Source: a virus (lineage: Duplodnaviria; Heunggongvirae; Uroviricota; Caudoviricetes). Taken from it: DNA of 12,008 bases. Under the pieces are notes generated by a model. It saw nothing but the letters and a program-made list of their open reading frames with translations. It was not told the origin of the DNA and did not search any database. This document shows, one piece after another, positions 7,076 through 12,008 of this stretch; positions within the stretch are counted from its first letter, which is position 1, and every line of letters starts with the position of its first letter. The stretch lies in the IMG/VR virus record IMGVR_UViG_643348545_000014; one strand, 5' to 3'. A program made the position numbers and the translations under genes.

Positions 7076-7203
7076 AAAGCGCATTTTTGTGATTTTATCG
7101 TCATCATCATCATGAGCGTAATTTATTGTTTTTAATTGTTTTGATGCAAAAAAGATGATGGTTGTGGTTAATTTTTGTTCGACATCTTTGCAGGCAGATA
7201 AAA

Positions 7204-7240
7204 AAGCCCGATAAGGTCAGAGGTGGCTTATCGGGCTTTT
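7204..7240 (+). terminator. Hairpin terminator (bidirectional-looking)
   Basis: 12-bp perfect stem AAGCCCGATAAG / CTTATCGGGCTT with an 11-nt loop, flanked by an A-run upstream and a T-run downstream. Confidence 0.5.
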
Positions 7241-7317
7241 GCATATGAGGTTTTTTGGTGCACTGACACACATGATCGGGATAATCATTTCATAATTTGC
7301 AACACAACTCAATATCA

Positions 7318-7373
7318 TTGCACAAAATGCAATCATGATTATAATCATAACTGGATGAACATCCAGTTATGAT
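7318..7373 (+). promoter_or_regulatory. Head-operon promoter candidate (TTGCAC-16 bp-TATAAT) overlapped by two perfect palindromes (operator candidates)
   Basis: -35 TTGCAC at 7318-7323 and -10 TATAAT at 7340-7345. 14-bp palindrome ATGATTATAATCAT at 7335-7348; 30-bp palindrome ATCATAACTGGATG-AA-CATCCAGTTATGAT at 7344-7373, followed by T6. Confidence 0.5.
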
Positions 7374-7401
7374 TTTTTAAGTCAAAGAGGAATTTCTTAC
7401 T

Positions 7402-7608
7402 ATGGCTGAAGAGAAAAAAGGCGGTATTTCGGTGTACATAAGCCCCGACATCGTGAAGGCGCTCAAGGAACGCCACCAGCAGAACGTAAAAGCAGGCATT
7501 GCGGCAGGACTTGATCCGCTGGCGATGGTTGAGCCGTCAACAGGCTGGCAGGTACGCGCCTATTTACGCGCGGCGCTGGGTATGAATCAGGTTCACGGGG
7601 GTGAATAA
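7402..7608 (+). CDS. Hypothetical small protein (68 aa) translationally coupled to the major capsid gene
   Basis: AAGAGG RBS; its stop overlaps the capsid ATG (TAATG). Function unknown. Confidence 0.5.
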   Translation: MAEEKKGGISVYISPDIVKALKERHQQNVKAGIAAGLDPLAMVEPSTGWQVRAYLRAALGMNQVHGGE

Positions 7609-8663
7609 TGACAGTAAAAGCAATATCACTTAACACTAACCAGCTTTTTGCGTACCTGAATCGCGAGGATATTGCGGAATTTAAATTCAGTCCGCTGTTT
7701 ACCGCGCTGTTTTTCCCGAACGTGGCGACATTCAACACACAGGACATCATGTTAGATAACCTGGATATTGAAGAAGTCACTATGTCGGCGTTTTGTTCGC
7801 CTATGGTGGGTAGCCAGGTTCAGCGCGATAAAGGGTACGAAACAAGCATTATTCGCCCTGGCTACATGAAGCCAAAACACGAAATCGATCCATTAAAAAC
7901 AATAATGCGCATGGCTGGAGAAGATCCAGCACAGCTTAACGACCCTACCTACCGCCGTATGCGCCTGATTACTGGCAACATGCGCCGCCAGATAAACGCC
8001 ATTAAAGCGCGCGTGGAATGGCTGGCGGTAAATGCGGTAACGACCGGAAAAAACATCATTGAGGGCGAAGGCATAGAGCGCTATGAAATCGACTGGAAGA
8101 TACCGGAAAAAAACATCATAGAGCAGGCCGACGGTAAAAAATGGTCAGAGCAGGACAAAGACATACACGACCCAATCTATGACATTGAGCTATACGCAGA
8201 TCAGGCAGGTTGCCCCGCAAACGTCATGATTATGGGCGTTGATGTATGGCGCATGTTACGCAGCTTTAAAAAATTCCGTGAACTGTACGATCTCTCCCGT
8301 GGTTCAGAATCCGCCGCAGAGCTGGCATGTAAAAACCTGGGCGAAGTGGTGAGCTTTAAAGGCTATCTTGGTGATCTGGCCCTTATCGTCTATTCCGGCA
8401 AATACACTGACAGCGACGGCACAGAAAAATATTTCCTTGAGCCTGATTTGCTGGTCCTGGGCAACACCAACAATAAAGGGCTGGTGGCCTATGGTGCGAT
8501 TATGGAACAGGAAGCGGTAAGAACGGGCGCAACGCAAAACATGTTTTACCCGAAAAACTGGATTGAGGACGGCGATCCGGCGATTGAGTACGTGCAGACG
8601 CACAGCGCACCGCAGCCGGTTCCGGCAGATATTCGCAAATTTGTTACCGTCAAAATTGGTTAA
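7608..8663 (+). CDS. Major capsid protein, lambda gpE-like
   Basis: 351 aa. Multiple conserved blocks against lambda gpE (recalled): FKFSPLFTALFF vs FKFDPLFLRLFF; PGYMKPKHEIDP vs PGYVKPKHEVNP; EDPAQLNDPTYRRMR vs EDPQNLADPAYRRRR; GYLGDLALIVYSGKY vs GMYGDVAIVVYSGQY; YPKNWIEDGDPA vs YPKNWVTTGDPA. Confidence 0.9.
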   Translation: MTVKAISLNTNQLFAYLNREDIAEFKFSPLFTALFFPNVATFNTQDIMLDNLDIEEVTMSAFCSPMVGSQVQRDKGYETSIIRPGYMKPKHEIDPLKTIMRMAGEDPAQLNDPTYRRMRLITGNMRRQINAIKARVEWLAVNAVTTGKNIIEGEGIERYEIDWKIPEKNIIEQADGKKWSEQDKDIHDPIYDIELYADQAGCPANVMIMGVDVWRMLRSFKKFRELYDLSRGSESAAELACKNLGEVVSFKGYLGDLALIVYSGKYTDSDGTEKYFLEPDLLVLGNTNNKGLVAYGAIMEQEAVRTGATQNMFYPKNWIEDGDPAIEYVQTHSAPQPVPADIRKFVTVKIG

Positions 8664-8675
8664 CGGGGGGATTCT

Positions 8676-9011
8676 ATGGACACTCCATACATTGAGTTAT
8701 TTGCAGGCAGTCAGCAGGTATCCACGACGCTGGTACATTTTGCCGCTGATGCTGGCGTTATTCAGGAATTTACCCCGCTGATGCTGGCGGACAATGGCGA
8801 GTTTAAGCCGTGGGATGGTCAGGAATCTGGCAAGGCTGTTTATCTGACTTCGTACCCCGTGGACACGTCAAAGCAGAAATCAGCACAGTGTTACAAGACG
8901 GGGATATTTAATATCGCCGCCGTAAACTGGCCTGAGAGCGCCGACACTGACGCGAAAAAATGCGCCGCCTTTGCGGGTTCTGGCGTATCCGTTCAGCCGC
9001 TGGCGCGATAA
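8676..9011 (+). CDS. Head decoration protein, lambda gpD-like
   Basis: 111 aa. Matches to lambda gpD (recalled): TPLMLAD vs TPLMLD, WDG, YKTGIF vs YKSGTF, WPESADTDAKKCAAFAGSGVSV vs [28 protein letters not shown] RBS. Confidence 0.8.
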   Translation: MDTPYIELFAGSQQVSTTLVHFAADAGVIQEFTPLMLADNGEFKPWDGQESGKAVYLTSYPVDTSKQKSAQCYKTGIFNIAAVNWPESADTDAKKCAAFAGSGVSVQPLAR

Positions 9012-9023
9012 GCAGGGGAAACG

Positions 9024-9437
9024 ATGGCAACGAATGAAAGCATCATGGCGCTACCGCTGGCGAGTAAATTTAAAGCAGAAGCGCGGGCAATGGCTGACAG
9101 AGGTTTATCAACCTACGAGGCCGTATATCAACTCAACAAACTGGAAGAACAGGACAAGCCGCGCGCTGATGCGATTATGGCGCTTCATGAACATAACGAC
9201 TATCAGCCGCTGTTACGTGCAATGGCAAACGTGCCATGTATTAGCGTCGATAATGCTCGTGAAATCCTGAACATGACCATAGAGCAGGAGCGCCCAAAGG
9301 TTGCACCAGAGCTTACCGCAGCCTTTGAAAACTTTATGGACATGCACAGCCCGCAAGCCGTATCAGCTGGCATGGCGTACGATGGCAGAAACCAGGGCGA
9401 TGACGGCGACATCGATCGCATACTGAAAACCATCTGA
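9024..9437 (+). CDS. Hypothetical protein (137 aa), last gene of the head operon, immediately upstream of cos
   Basis: AGGGGA RBS; followed by a terminator and cos. No family recognised; its position is analogous to lambda FI. Confidence 0.55.
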   Translation: MATNESIMALPLASKFKAEARAMADRGLSTYEAVYQLNKLEEQDKPRADAIMALHEHNDYQPLLRAMANVPCISVDNAREILNMTIEQERPKVAPELTAAFENFMDMHSPQAVSAGMAYDGRNQGDDGDIDRILKTI

Positions 9438-9442
9438 GACAA

Positions 9443-9467
9443 GGCCGGAGAAATCCGGCTTTTTTTT
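9443..9467 (+). terminator. Rho-independent terminator
   Basis: Stem GCCGGA / TCCGGC, loop GAAA, then T8. Confidence 0.6.
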
Positions 9468-9667
9468 ACGGGTCCTTTCCGGCATATGGACCCGTTACGG
9501 GGCGGCGACCTCGCGCGTTTTCACTATTTATGAAAATTTTCCGGGATCCATGTCCGGTTTCTCTGCAAGTTAACCATATGAAAAATATAAAAACATGCTT
9601 TCTATGAACCGGACATGCGCAAAAAACAGACACTAAAACCGGACATCGTACCCGTTAACCGGAAGTG
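9468..9667 (+). other. Lambda-type cos site (cosQ-like, cosN, and a cosB-like region with distinct repeats)
   Basis: ACGGGTCCTTTCCGG ... CCGTTACG|GGGCGGCGACCT CGCGCGTTTTCACTATTTATGAAAATTTTCCGG is near-identical to the lambda cos junction as recalled; the 12-nt cohesive-end sequence is at 9500-9511. Downstream are four AACCGGACAT-like elements (9550-9559 inverted; 9607-9616, 9637-9646, 9658-9667 direct) around an AT-rich segment, resembling the lambda R3-I1-R2-R1 layout but with a different repeat sequence. Confidence 0.8.
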
Positions 9668-9839
9668 TGCAAAAATCACACGCATTGCTGCGCGTGATTA
9701 ACAATTTATCGGCTTTACTGTTCTGTATAGGCTGGGTGGCGTCATGCCGTAGCCGTTCTCCGTGCCAGCATGGAATAATCCGTAGTTACAGAGCGGTAAA
9801 GTTAAAAATCACTTTCTGTTACGCCATCAAATACGCGAT

Positions 9840-10066
9840 ACAACAACCTTGTGTTTTTACAAAACCATTTGATATCATTGAATTTTTTCACATTAATGAC
9901 ATCAAAATACATCGTAAGGTTGTTGTATTTATTTTATTTTTACCTTACTTATCAATTAGATATACCAAACAATTAAACAACAACCACCCCCTCAAAAAAT
10001 CTCATAAATAGCGAAAAACCGCGAGGTCGCCGCCCCGTAACGGGCCATAATTCCAGGAAGGACCCG
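9840..10066 (-). other. Second cos-like site in inverted orientation (cosQ-like, cosN-like, and its own three 9-mer repeats)
   Basis: 10020-10044 is the exact reverse complement of 9491-9515 (25 bp). The reverse complement of 10012-10066 reads CGGGTCCTTCCTGG..CCCGTTACGGGGCGGCGACCTCGCGGTTTTTCGCTATTTATGAGATTTTTT. Adjacent repeats ACAACAACC at 9840-9848 and 9977-9985, GGTTGTTGT at 9918-9926. Confidence 0.6.
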
Positions 10067-10099
10067 ACGACACCAGACTATCAGAACGATGGGGGCACA

Positions 10100-10381
10100 A
10101 TGACAGAAGCCGAAATACTGGGATTAATCCGCCGCGTTGCCGGAATCAGCCAGCAGGTTGACGAACAGGCCACGCAGCCGGACAGCGTGACCGCTGAAAA
10201 TTATGCGCGTGTTGTTGCGGAGGTGATGCGCCGTGATGGTATAGAACTTAATGGCGTGGATATGCGCAACATACGAACCAGAGTTCTTGAGTTGCTGGCC
10301 TACCGTCGCCGCGTGGAGATGTATCGGGAGAAGGAGAAAATAACGTACCACTGGAAGAAGCCGGAGCGGTTGCGGCGGTAA
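10100..10381 (+). CDS. Hypothetical protein (93 aa) downstream of the cos pair
   Basis: GGGGG RBS 4 nt upstream of the ATG. Charged, helical-looking sequence; no family recognised. Confidence 0.5.
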   Translation: MTEAEILGLIRRVAGISQQVDEQATQPDSVTAENYARVVAEVMRRDGIELNGVDMRNIRTRVLELLAYRRRVEMYREKEKITYHWKKPERLRR

Positions 10382-10599
10382 CTGGTTGATATTCCCGACG
10401 GACCAAAAATGGGTGGCTACATCCCTCGCTTCTGAGGACTGTTAACAAGCTGCCTGAAAGACAGTCACAAACTACGAAATTTTCGCAGTTTAATTAATGA
10501 TCAGCTTAATCGCTCACCCGCTGATATTTTCGGAAACCTCAATTTGAGGAAGTCGGCGCGGTAACTCGCTGAACTTTAAGCAAAGCGCAAAATTGCGCT

Positions 10600-10930
10600 T
10601 GCTGAATAATCATTATGATTACGCAGATGATTAAGGAATGACCGAAGGCGGAAATTCGCCTGTGGTTAATGGGGGAGTTGCAGATCTGCAACTCGACCAT
10701 GAAACTACGGAAACTACCCGTAGTTTGGGTAGTAAGAGTAACACCCAGATTTTGGGGCTTACTCGTGATACCCAAATTTGGGGTATCGGTGGCAACCATA
10801 ACGACTTTCGTTACGGTTGATGCTTTTACCCCATTGGTGGAGGCTGGGCGGCCTGCTGTGGGCTTTTCCACCATTGGTGGAAAGGTGCAGATCTGGATCA
10901 TCATTACGGTGATCAAGGGTATGTAAAACC
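10600..10930. repeat. Palindrome- and repeat-dense region with no confident CDS (candidate regulatory DNA or structured RNA)
   Basis: TGCAGATCTGCA palindrome (10680-10691); interleaved inverted repeats AACTAC/GTAGTT and ACTACCC/GGGTAGT (10699-10729); paired CCCA(G/A)ATTTGGGG elements (about 10746-10786); CCATTGGTGG twice (10831-10840, 10872-10881). Short ORFs overlap in three frames. Confidence 0.4.
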
Positions 10931-10939
10931 CACCAGCCT

Positions 10940-11190
10940 GATTAACAGTTAACCGGAAAAAAAATCCGGCATGGGGGGGAGTGGTTAGCCACGAACAACG
11001 AATAAGCTGGACACCGCGCCCCCTCTCACGCAGAGAAAAAATTACCGTTTCGTAGTAGTTAACATGTTAACTGCCTGATGAAGCGTTGTTGTTGATTTTT
11101 TCTTTATGATTCATCTGGTTGCGTGCAAAAAATGTTAACTACCTTTTTGGTAAAAATGTTAACAGGGCAGCGGTTAACATTAACCAGGCG
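10940..11190. promoter_or_regulatory. Cluster of ATGTTAAC / GTTAAC motifs including a 16-bp perfect palindrome (candidate operator array)
   Basis: AGTTAACATGTTAACT at 11057-11072; ATGTTAAC at 11132-11139 and 11156-11163; inverted GTTAACAT at 11173-11180; GTTAAC at 10948-10953 and 10441-10446. Confidence 0.35.
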
Positions 11191-11432
11191 TAAATCCCGA
11201 TATGGTGATCCCCATATCGGGGAACATCCACCAGCTTAAAAACGAATGAGCGAAAAAAATCCAGGTAGAATTATGGAAGTCGCTAGGGCAATCGCCGTTT
11301 AAATTGTGCATTTTTTCAGCAAATTATTTTAGTTATACGTTTGGTTATACGGTTTAAAAGCTGAATCGATAATATTGATTAAAATCATACTGTTACACGC
11401 TCAATTAAACTACTCTCGTGAAAAATCCCAAG

Positions 11433-11461
11433 AAAACCAACCTATTGCGGTTGGTTTTTTT
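11433..11461 (+). terminator. Rho-independent terminator (bidirectional-looking)
   Basis: 10-bp perfect stem AAAACCAACC / GGTTGGTTTT, loop TATTGC, then T7. Confidence 0.6.
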
Positions 11462-11481
11462 ATATCTGCATTTAATTCGAT

Positions 11482-11511
11482 AAACAGACCGCGACACATC
11501 ACGGCCTGTTT
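11482..11511 (+). terminator. Hairpin immediately 3' of the minus-strand OMP gene (candidate terminator)
   Basis: 10-bp stem with one mismatch (AAACAGACCG / CGGCCTGTTT), 10-nt loop, T-rich tail on the plus strand. Confidence 0.35.
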
Positions 11512-11522
11512 ATTTTCTGTTA

Positions 11523-12008
11523 TCAGAACGTCCAGACCACACCCGCCTGAGTTGTGCTGCTTTCTTCACGGGAGAAACGGCTGTCGATACCGAGCGTCAG
11601 GCCCGTCAATGTTTGCTCAAAGCCAGCTCCCGCATCAGTGTTCACGTTGTTGCGGCTGTTAATTACCGAACTCCACATCGCCGTATCGTAATTAACGCCT
11701 TTTACGCTACCAAGACGCCCACGCACGGTGTCCAGTTCTGCATCAAATACCAGCGGTTGTGCTGCCGCCATATTCAGCACATCCGTGGTTGAAGGGGGCA
11801 TTTGTACGCGATTCTCTGCGAGACTCCAGCTATGGTTGCCATTATCCAGCAAGGTATATTCATACGTACTGATATCAACAACGCTTCCGGCATTGCCCAA
11901 CGTAAATGCCGCATCACCGCGCCCTCCTTTAATCGTGGGATCAGTCGCCGCGCCATAAACCTGTAGCACTCCATTATTGATCGTAGTCTGGTTTACCGCG
12001 CCACCCAT
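11523..12008 (-). CDS. C-terminal 161 aa of an autotransporter-like outer-membrane beta-barrel protein; possibly a truncated gene or fragment, with the true start perhaps beyond the window
   Basis: YTLLDNGNHSWSL junction-like motif, then AMWSSVINS...AGFEQTLTGLTLGIDSRF resembling the first barrel strands of AIDA/Ag43-type autotransporters, ending in VVWTF with a terminal aromatic. Double stop TGA TAA. Only about 60 residues follow the barrel start, far fewer than the ~250 of a full barrel. Confidence 0.45.
   Translation of the reverse strand: MGGAVNQTTINNGVLQVYGAATDPTIKGGRGDAAFTLGNAGSVVDISTYEYTLLDNGNHSWSLAENRVQMPPSTTDVLNMAAAQPLVFDAELDTVRGRLGSVKGVNYDTAMWSSVINSRNNVNTDAGAGFEQTLTGLTLGIDSRFSREESSTTQAGVVWTF

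Follow-up and report, generated by a model that had tools for sequence, protein, structure and literature searches.

The gene-poor right end (positions 10382 to 11522) of a viral DNA of 12,008 nucleotides, IMG/VR record IMGVR_UViG_643348545_000014 (called the window here), is probably a composite of cis-acting DNA sites and not of genes. We read it as the non-coding right arm of a phage-inducible chromosomal island (PICI), made up of hairpins, two Chi sites, the arm of an attachment site (att) and a captured copy of what looks like a phage cohesive-end site (cos); about 100 bp of the host follow. The PICI in the window is one of the EcCICFT073 type from Escherichia coli and is integrated at the tRNA-Pro gene proL. 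Our main subject is an insert rich in GTTAAC motifs at 10970-11195 (+ strand), referred to as cos3. Judged from its sequence, this array is most likely a third, heterologous cos site with boxes that would be bound by a phage small terminase (TerS), because it is homologous to the region between the HNH endonuclease and TerS genes of certain phages and shares conserved boxes and a conserved block with it.

In a BLAST search of phage genomes with settings for distant similarity, only positions 11007-11181 gave a match, with about 80% identity over 173 bp (E = 3e-36) in 94 phage records. The matching phages include Stx1a-, Stx2c- and Stx2a-converting phages, BP-4795, YYZ-2008, 2851, 1717 and PPompW prophages. 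The homologue of cos3 is thus the stretch between hnh and terS which is presumed to be the cos region of BP-4795-type Stx and other lambdoid phages. Two annotated records, BP-4795 and vB_EcoS-705R7, were examined, and in both of them the match sits in the gap that separates terS from the gene of the HNH endonuclease. Viral contigs were scanned for an exact pattern, which gave at least 120 loci, and about 105 of the 105 informative ones showed the order HNH, element, TerS, large terminase (TerL). The TerS of these phages belongs to the Terminase_2 family and the TerL to PF03354/PF20441; the element is present in 94 phage records and its TerS in 95. The module of the window covers most of the phage intergenic region and ends about 75 bp before terS, without any flanking phage coding sequence.

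Within cos3 a conserved block comes first. It is followed by two boxes in inverted orientation to one another and, after a T-rich spacer, by two boxes in direct orientation at a distance of 24 bp; a further inverted box is the last element. The block, GGACACCGCGCCCCCTCTCACGCAGAGAAAAAATTACCGTTTC (11007-11050, + strand), is 95% identical to the majority sequence of 82 distinct phage copies, which served as our conservation reference, and these 44 bp are a candidate for the nicking region (cosN) of cos3. The five ATGTTAAC boxes (11057-11180, + strand) are candidate small-terminase binding sites, similar in kind to cosB. The inverted pair forms the 16-bp palindrome AGTTAACATGTTAACT at 11057-11072, the direct boxes lie at 11132-11139 and 11156-11163, and the last, inverted box lies at 11173-11180. 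All five copies of ATGTTAAC in the 12-kb window fall within 11058-11180, as compared to 0.54 copies in shuffled sequences, and none of 200 shuffles reached five; GTTAAC itself occurs 10 times versus 3.2 expected. The boxes are identical to the phage majority at 45 of 46 positions, whereas the spacers after 11050 agree at only 54 of 89 (61%; Fisher's exact p = 8e-7).

HNH-associated terminases reportedly use a cos located between hnh and terS, both in phage HK97 and in the Staphylococcus aureus phages phi12 and phiSLT. None of the phage records starts at cos, all 95 being given in prophage coordinates. We also tried to read the cut site from contig ends, and rejected this approach: six ends fall inside the element, at six different positions, and are thus assembly breaks. 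A literature search by sequence string gave no match, and literature searches returned no published description of cos3 or of oriented Chi sites for PICIs.

Comparison of related islands, given below by locus number where needed, indicates that cos3 is an insertion. In collinear islands which do not carry it (L135, L210, L149), the equivalent of position 10969 abuts the equivalent of 11196: there is almost nothing between the hairpin CCGGAAAAAAAATCCGG, at 10953-10969 of the window, and the next one, CCCGATATGG..CCATATCGGG, at 11196-11221 of the window. An imperfect direct repeat, TTAACC..GG..AAAT(T)CC, flanks the insert. The original prediction had pointed to a direct repeat of GTTAAC..CTGCCTGA at 10441 and 11066 as bracketing about 630 bp; this repeat exists, being only 75% alike over 16 nt, but it marks no unit boundary, and the module really begins and ends at 10970 and 11195. 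The islands in which cos3 is present represent no fewer than three types of integrase and att site, namely those at proL (the window) and at cspD/clpS (L004) and a third type (L217). It is absent from the prototype EcCICFT073.

The island has, in addition, two lambda-type cos sites, 512 bp apart and in opposite orientation, upstream of the gene for a conserved 93-aa protein (10100-10381). One of them lies at 9470-9511 on the plus strand (cosQ GGGTCCT at 9470, cosN GGGCGGCGACCT at 9500), and the other, inverted, at 10024-10065 on the minus strand (GGGCGGCGACCT at 10024, GGGTCCT at 10059). Such a pair of inverted lambda cosQ/cosN sites has been described for the CFT073 island (Fillol-Salom et al. 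2018, PMC6092414; 2019, PMC6739421). An rpp/Nu1-like gene (144-180 aa) lies between the lambda-type sites in CFT073, L001, L002, L005 and L129. The window, L004 and L054 have no such gene there, the open reading frames (ORFs) in 9512-10023 of the window being without a Pfam or PHROG family match, and a PDB sequence search for Rpp with the neighbouring 137-aa and 93-aa proteins gave no match. As a separate observation, the plus-oriented cos is accompanied by a cosB of phage type, as window 9463-9646 is 94% identical to the Rz-Nu1 intergenic region of the lambda-like phage PhiR12_1, and the island might thus be packaged by such helpers without Rpp. By arithmetic only, four island copies (46.6 kb) would suit the size of a lambda head, and five copies (58.2 kb) would come near the 57.9-kb genome of BP-4795.

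Neither the homology to phage cos regions nor the Chi sites had been listed in the original prediction. Both of the most conserved right-end modules, one on either side of cos3, contain CCACCAGC, which is Chi on the minus strand. The left one (10923-10969), the most widely conserved of the right-end modules, has its Chi (GCTGGTGG on the minus strand) at 10930-10937, and the right one (11196-11257) starts with the hairpin CCCGATATGGTGATCCCCATATCGGG (11196-11221), followed by a minus-strand Chi at 11228-11235. The whole window contains 12 Chi sites, as compared to 0.36 expected from shuffles: five on the plus strand (1163, 2077, 4769, 6593, 8480) and seven on the minus strand (2751, 2958, 5362, 6619, 7473, 10930, 11228). 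Other PICIs are similar, with 0.6-1.1 Chi per kb; relative to the E. coli average given in PMC12315714, the window is enriched about four- to fivefold. Orientation is biased too: 55 distinct PICI right ends carry 61 minus-strand and 8 plus-strand Chi sites, and 49 of the 55 have at least one on the minus strand.

The two minus-strand Chi sites next to cos3 lie 0.9 and 1.2 kb to the right of the inverted cos (10024-10035). In a symmetrical manner, one finds the closest plus-strand Chi (8480) at a distance of 1 kb on the left side of the plus-oriented cos (9500), and L001, L004 and L054 have the same layout of Chi and cos. According to the Chi orientation rule of PMC12315714, a minus-strand Chi would be active for RecBCD which enters at the end of the inverted cos and moves right. 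On each side of the double-cos cassette, the nearest Chi is thus so oriented that it would stop RecBCD coming from that cos. We infer that this pattern fits a satellite which has no anti-RecBCD gene and can be packaged in either direction.

To the right of the second Chi module, 11258-11412 (+ strand) is the integrase-specific arm of attP, and 11413-11420 (+ strand) holds what looks like a remnant of the attR core, CTCTCGTG, which comes from the 3' end of tRNA-Pro; the tRNA would continue with CCGACCA, but these 7 bp have been lost. The reading of 11258-11420 as an attachment arm is based on the arm-type repeats AGTTATACG (11331-11339) and GGTTATACG (11343-11351), which lie 62 bp to the left of the core remnant, and on the remnant itself. 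Locus L001, which is 99% identical, has six copies of the arm-type 9-mer in 29 kb, with 0.31 expected: two of them are those seen here, and the other four lie on the side of the integrase gene, between it and proL. Arm-type sites are thus present on both arms, and the island encodes an integrase with an arm-binding domain (PF13356). Only 8 bp of the core, CTCTCGTG, are left in the window, while the relative L213 keeps 15 bp, the full CTCTCGTGCCGACCA. In the window and the loci compared with it (L001, L002, L005, L054, L145, L178, L190, L193 and L213), either 0, 1, 2, 7 (the window) or 12 bp are deleted directly after CTCTCGTG. PICIs are reported to damage the tRNA fragment at attR (PMC10111431), and the attR of the window matches this description.

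Alignment with the empty site of K-12 MG1655, where AAAAATCCCAAGAAAAAACCAACC follows the tRNA, placed the junction between island and host at 11421, as the host sequence resumes there. The remaining 11421-11522 is host proL-yejO intergenic DNA with the proL terminator hairpin (11430-11461) and a second hairpin (11480-11513), that of the yejO terminator, and the yejO stop codon is at 11523. The original prediction had drawn the gene-poor right end to about 11520; the stretch is indeed gene-poor, but its last 100 bp (11421-11520) belong to the host. The suggestion that the stretch is the attachment-site end of the island holds for 11258-11420, given the arm repeats, the core remnant and the host DNA resuming at 11421, but not for the GTTAAC array.

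These parts may be put together in the following way. The packaging set of BP-4795-type phages would comprise the HNH endonuclease, the Terminase_2-family TerS and the PF03354-type TerL, and the GTTAAC array would be a captured copy of their presumed cos region, with 11007-11050 as the nicking region and the five ATGTTAAC boxes as TerS sites arranged like the R sites of lambda cosB. During growth of such a helper, the terminase would bind and cut cos3 and package island concatemers rightward over the attP junction. Lambda-type helpers are served by 9470-9511 and 10024-10065, and through cos3 a second family of helpers would join them. A cut at the inverted lambda-type cos would leave a free end, and RecBCD coming in from there would be stopped by the two minus-strand Chi sites that flank the insert; 11258-11420, the integrase-specific attP arm together with the damaged attR core, would be used in excision and integration.

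A broader proposal may be built upon this, though we make it only tentatively. The island might be a multi-helper satellite with a functional cos taken from the HNH, Terminase_2 TerS and PF03354 TerL system of long-tailed Stx1a-, Stx2c- and Stx2a-converting and related lambdoid phages; it might be mobilised by Stx phages and could interfere with them, its Chi sites might guard both packaging directions, and its right end might be a recombining store of helper-directed cis elements.

The remainder of the stretch, 10382-10970, is a non-coding mosaic of about 19 short hairpin and palindrome modules. All of the palindromes, hairpins and repeats that had been predicted here and further right are present, at or within a base or two of where they had been placed; the features found include an 18-bp perfect palindrome AGTTGCAGATCTGCAACT (10676-10693), interleaved stems (10702-10733), CCCAGATTTTGGGG (10744-10757) and CCCAAATTTGGGG (10771-10783). 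Hairpins lie at 10469-10491, 10537-10549, 10583-10600, 10602-10626, 10639-10668 and 10669-10700, and further on at 10702-10726, 10736-10764, 10779-10833, 10862-10886, 10896-10914 and 10953-10969. The fold z-score of 10382-10970 is -11.0, whereas three coding controls gave -1.7 to +0.2; it is -10.5 on the plus and -9.95 on the minus strand for 10570-10970, and -4.8 for 10970-11260. BLAST against E. coli genomes and the 55 right ends found the modules in shuffled and at times duplicated combinations. The main ones are approximately 10382-10427, 10459/10513-10604, 10565-10636 and 10645/10670-10792 on the left, and 10791-10841, 10862-10969 and 10923-10969 on the right. They occur in EcCICFT073-type islands at several att sites, EcCICFT073 included, and in a capsid-forming PICI next to fis; right ends which carry them are dense in hairpins (z = -4 to -10), and unrelated right ends are not.

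A perfect IHF consensus, TATCAACCAGTTA (10379-10391, minus strand), overlaps the stop codon of the 93-aa gene and heads a repeated leader, (G/C)TAAC..TGAWMTT, of which degenerate copies lie at about 10513 and 10561. It was also observed that the leader, including the last 25 bp or so of the 93-aa gene ((G/C)TAAC..TGATATT), recurs one to four times in many PICI right ends, and that the hairpin after it differs from copy to copy, which gives the impression of right-end units stacked upon one another (window 10378, 10513, 10561). We considered whether the (G/C)TAAC..GTTGAT leader might resemble an integron attC, and rejected this idea: there is no GTTRRRY partner and no IntI, and the sequence fits the IHF consensus instead. 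A replication origin was likewise dismissed, the array being common to islands with three different replication modules (DUF927, primase, RepA helicase). So was a set of repetitive extragenic palindromic (REP) elements or bacterial interspersed mosaic elements (BIMEs), as the consensus GCCKGATGCGRCG gave 13 loose matches versus 10.4 expected, none of them in the hairpin array. GATC is not enriched in clusters. Our best guess, held with low confidence, is that the rightward late operon ends in this array as a structured 3' tail, and that islands are prone to recombine with one another here. That the mosaic would be transcribed in this way, its stem-loops protecting or terminating the RNA, is the weakest step of the proposed scheme.

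Several points weigh against the reading of this right arm as a set of working cis sites with a captured cos. For this phage group we found no mapped cohesive ends in the literature and phage records consulted, and the label "cos" is thus based on position, on the analogy with HK97 and phi12/phiSLT and on co-occurrence with TerS. The PICI-type copies of cos3 are 96-100% identical to one another, so that the contrast between boxes and spacers could reflect selection in the phage lineage before capture; in other words, selection on the boxes and the block could predate the capture and not be selection in the island. The PICI type (at least 90% identity) is also rare, occurring in about 50 of 5426 complete E. 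coli genomes and in 4 viral contigs, as compared to about 1240 genomes and more than 120 contigs for the phage type. With 7 bp missing from the attR core, this particular copy may not excise well. Both strands of the hairpin mosaic fold equally well, and only the G-U counts (26 on the plus strand, 13 on the minus strand) hint at the plus strand. Finally, the interpretation of the Chi sites assumes that the inverted cos is really used for packaging.

How far can other explanations account for the same observations? The GTTAAC module might be a non-functional scar, phage DNA brought in by illegitimate or short-homology recombination and merely carried along. The imperfect direct repeat at its borders suggests exactly such a short-homology insertion, the module is rare among PICIs and missing from the prototype, there is no measurable constraint within the near-identical PICI copies, and other tiny fragments of phage genes lie in the surrounding region. 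On the other hand, after about 20% divergence from the phage sequence all boxes and the 44-bp block are intact, in contrast to the spacers; the module takes in most of one intergenic region and none of the coding sequence beside it, and it has spread to islands with at least three integrase types. We thus consider a mere scar rather unlikely, though it deserves to be taken seriously. Far less probable still, to the point of being hardly tenable, is that the boxes are operators for a transcription regulator of the island or for a recombination directionality factor. Palindromic and direct repeats are arranged here as is typical of operator arrays, and the island encodes a small helix-turn-helix protein. 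However, the array is absent from most islands with the same gene set, lies 230-360 bp from the core, is independent of the integrase type, and in phages tracks one TerS family, at a place where the lambdoid late operon needs no promoter. One candidate of the original prediction was the attachment-site end with recombination-directionality sites; the GTTAAC array is no part of that arm and is not read as a set of such sites, as it accompanies at least three different integrases with their att sites and has its homologue between the HNH and terS genes of a phage. The further suggestion of a regulator-binding array was right in kind, in that the array seems to consist of protein-binding boxes, but the likely ligand is a phage small terminase and not a regulator or a directionality factor.

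The hairpin array (10382-10970, perhaps up to 11257) might alternatively have a specific regulatory role as RNA, be it as a structured 3' untranslated region or in the form of one or several structured non-coding RNAs. This would suit the extreme fold z-scores, the twofold excess of G-U pairs on the plus strand, the position directly behind the final gene of an operon that runs rightward, where the first strong intrinsic terminator to follow is that of host proL, and the replacement, in L192, of one hairpin by a different palindrome. However, the minus strand has an equal z-score, as expected of DNA palindromes, the modules are independently present, absent or duplicated among islands, which is not how one folded RNA would behave, the promoter-like sites are all weak, and covariance models of Rfam 15 gave no match in 9400-11560, either at the gathering threshold or at E<=5. 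Covariation could not help either: homologues of 10645-10800 are 97-99% identical, and the covariation test was abandoned for this reason, while the divergent relatives L213 and L214 have different palindromes at the equivalent places and not compensated ones. A specific regulatory RNA is thus improbable in our opinion, and we give even less credit to the idea that the region is decayed coding sequence, with minus-strand remnants of Rha/Roi/Ant (Bro-network) genes. Two minus-strand fragments do match the same N-terminal part of Roi/Ant proteins (10 of 12 and 15 of 18 residues, 88-91% DNA identity), and in the relatives L178 and L190 the Roi-like peptide is longer (PMAVSERINGLG). But the fragments make up less than 100 of about 600 bp, the similarity ends abruptly on both sides, both fragments are themselves palindromes, no intact gene stands at this position in any of the 55 right ends, and a fold z-score of -11 would not be accounted for. 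Because the fragments are so short and relatives have no intact gene, pseudogene decay is at most a minor contributor; the possibility of decayed genes, which had been named as one that would overturn the original prediction, thus applies marginally, to two peptides of 12-18 aa, and not to the rest of the stretch. The claim that there is no credible ORF here holds as well. Pfam and PHROG scans of every ORF of at least 38 aa in the region gave no match, and the longest one (125 aa, minus strand) belongs to no family and finds among 5.8 billion proteins only 22 fragmentary E. coli "hypothetical" matches, which are spurious fragments.

The first of these two fragments is a 35-bp match to the N-terminal part of roi/KilA/anti-repressor genes (10522-10556, minus strand, peptide RLPQIEVSE) and contains the palindrome CCTCAATTTGAGG; the other, a match to the N-terminus of Rha/Ant (10840-10893, minus strand, peptide TFPPMVEKPTAGRPA), contains the palindrome TTCCACCATTGGTGGAA and has a degenerate 20-nt duplicate at 10822-10841. 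We also observed that homologous N-terminal positions of Roi/Ant proteins are encoded by different palindromes, CCTCAAATTGAGG and TTCCACCAATGGTGGAA (in L211, HK620 roi, and L212, SSU5 ant), and that both palindromes are met again in PICI right ends, a hint that the rha, roi and ant genes may contain a cis element.

As for the island itself, it spans about 11.64 kb, approximately -218 to 11420 in window coordinates, and the ATG of its integrase gene is the start of the window. A 99.3%-identical copy resides in strain DETEC-S792, between tRNA-Pro (proL) and the autotransporter gene yejO. Among the proteins of the window are the integrase with its Arm-DNA-binding domain, members of the Ash family and of DUF4222, a primase (DUF927) and SSB, as well as homologues of the lambda capsid protein gpE and decoration protein gpD, a protein similar to the C-terminus of Nu3/protease, and the 93-aa protein. 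The assignment to EcCICFT073-type PICIs follows from the integrase at the left end, the unidirectional, rightward genes, the primase/replication module, the lambda-like capsid and decoration homologues, the two lambda-like cosQ/cosN sites, the size of about 11-12 kb and the att site at a tRNA gene. The CFT073 island is collinear with the window, with 95% DNA identity over 7200-9546. A tRNA scan of the window found no tRNA. Rfam placed isrK-like and C4 antisense RNA genes (immunity RNAs of the P1/P7/P4 type) at 2780-2965, inside the region of the Ash-family ORF. The 93-aa protein corresponds to phrog_1561, has an invariant C-terminus, YHWKKPERLRR, and is encoded by the last gene in both EcCICFT073-type and capsid-forming PICIs; a whole-database protein search returned 1027 homologues, and a contig scan with the protein a single locus. 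Its AlphaFold model shows three helices and, with a pLDDT of 60, was of too low quality for a fold search. Right-end modules are also contained in two "plasmids" of the size of a PICI or a PICI multimer, NZ_CP148328.1 (10,790 bp) and CP088587.1 (32,560 bp), which may be excised or concatemeric islands assembled as plasmids.

It is known that satellites carry the cos of their helpers. In E. coli, the ones described have cos sites of lambda type and need lambda-like helpers. If the reading of cos3 as a second, unrelated type of cos is true, the range of helpers would widen to a phage family which includes many Stx-converting prophages of enterohaemorrhagic E. coli. This would have consequences for the spread of such islands among pathogenic E. 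coli and, since satellites usually interfere with their helpers, possibly for the yield of Stx phages. Moreover, cos3 offers a route to the unmapped cos and TerS recognition boxes of the BP-4795-type/Stx phage group. The Chi pattern, in turn, suggests that satellites without RecBCD inhibitors of the Gam type might protect their packaging ends by means of oriented Chi sites.

Comparison with known systems puts these proposals in perspective. The closest one is EcCICFT073 with its cos1 and cos2 sites (PMC6092414, PMC6739421): the island family, the gene order and the inverted pair of lambda-type cosQ/cosN are the same, and so is the principle of a satellite which carries its helper's cos and is packaged by the helper's terminase. 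What differs is that the window has cos3 as a third site, 1 kb further right and of an unrelated type (HNH, Terminase_2 TerS, PF03354 TerL), and that the rpp/Nu1-like gene is present there and not in the window. Lambda cos itself (cosQ-cosN-cosB, with R3, I1, R2 and R1) shares with cos3 a conserved block, boxes of mixed orientation, a T-rich spacer and, as regards the phage homologues of cos3, a position directly upstream of terS; it differs in sequence and in terminase families, and the boxes of cos3 are 8-bp ATGTTAAC motifs as compared to 16-bp R sites. The attachment site resembles lambda/P4-type attP at a tRNA 3' end in having arm-type 9-mers on both sides of the core, an arm-binding integrase and what looks like a tRNA-derived core, and differs only in the variable deletion sizes among relatives at one junction. 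Lambdoid phages which are rich in Chi and have no Rec module or anti-RecBCD function (PMC12315714) are alike in Chi density, in orientation relative to cos and in clustering near the end exposed to RecBCD. The window differs from them in being a satellite and in having Chi on both strands, which fits two inverted cos sites. BIMEs, REP elements and repetitive IHF-binding palindromic elements (RIPs) of E. coli are, similarly to the hairpin array, mosaics of short extragenic palindromes downstream of an operon, one of them with an adjacent IHF consensus; however, the modules of the window have no REP consensus, are specific to PICI right ends and differ from each other in sequence. Outside E. coli, the S. 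aureus pathogenicity islands (SaPIs) of the SaPIbov5 type are reportedly cos islands packaged by the HNH-dependent cos phages phi12 and phiSLT. They likewise carry a copy of the site of an HNH-type cos helper, but they belong to another phylum and are unrelated in sequence, and the window pairs its presumed HNH-type site with lambda-type cos sites. A PICI which bears cos3 between flanking, oriented Chi sites thus looks like a new form of the known helper-cos strategy.

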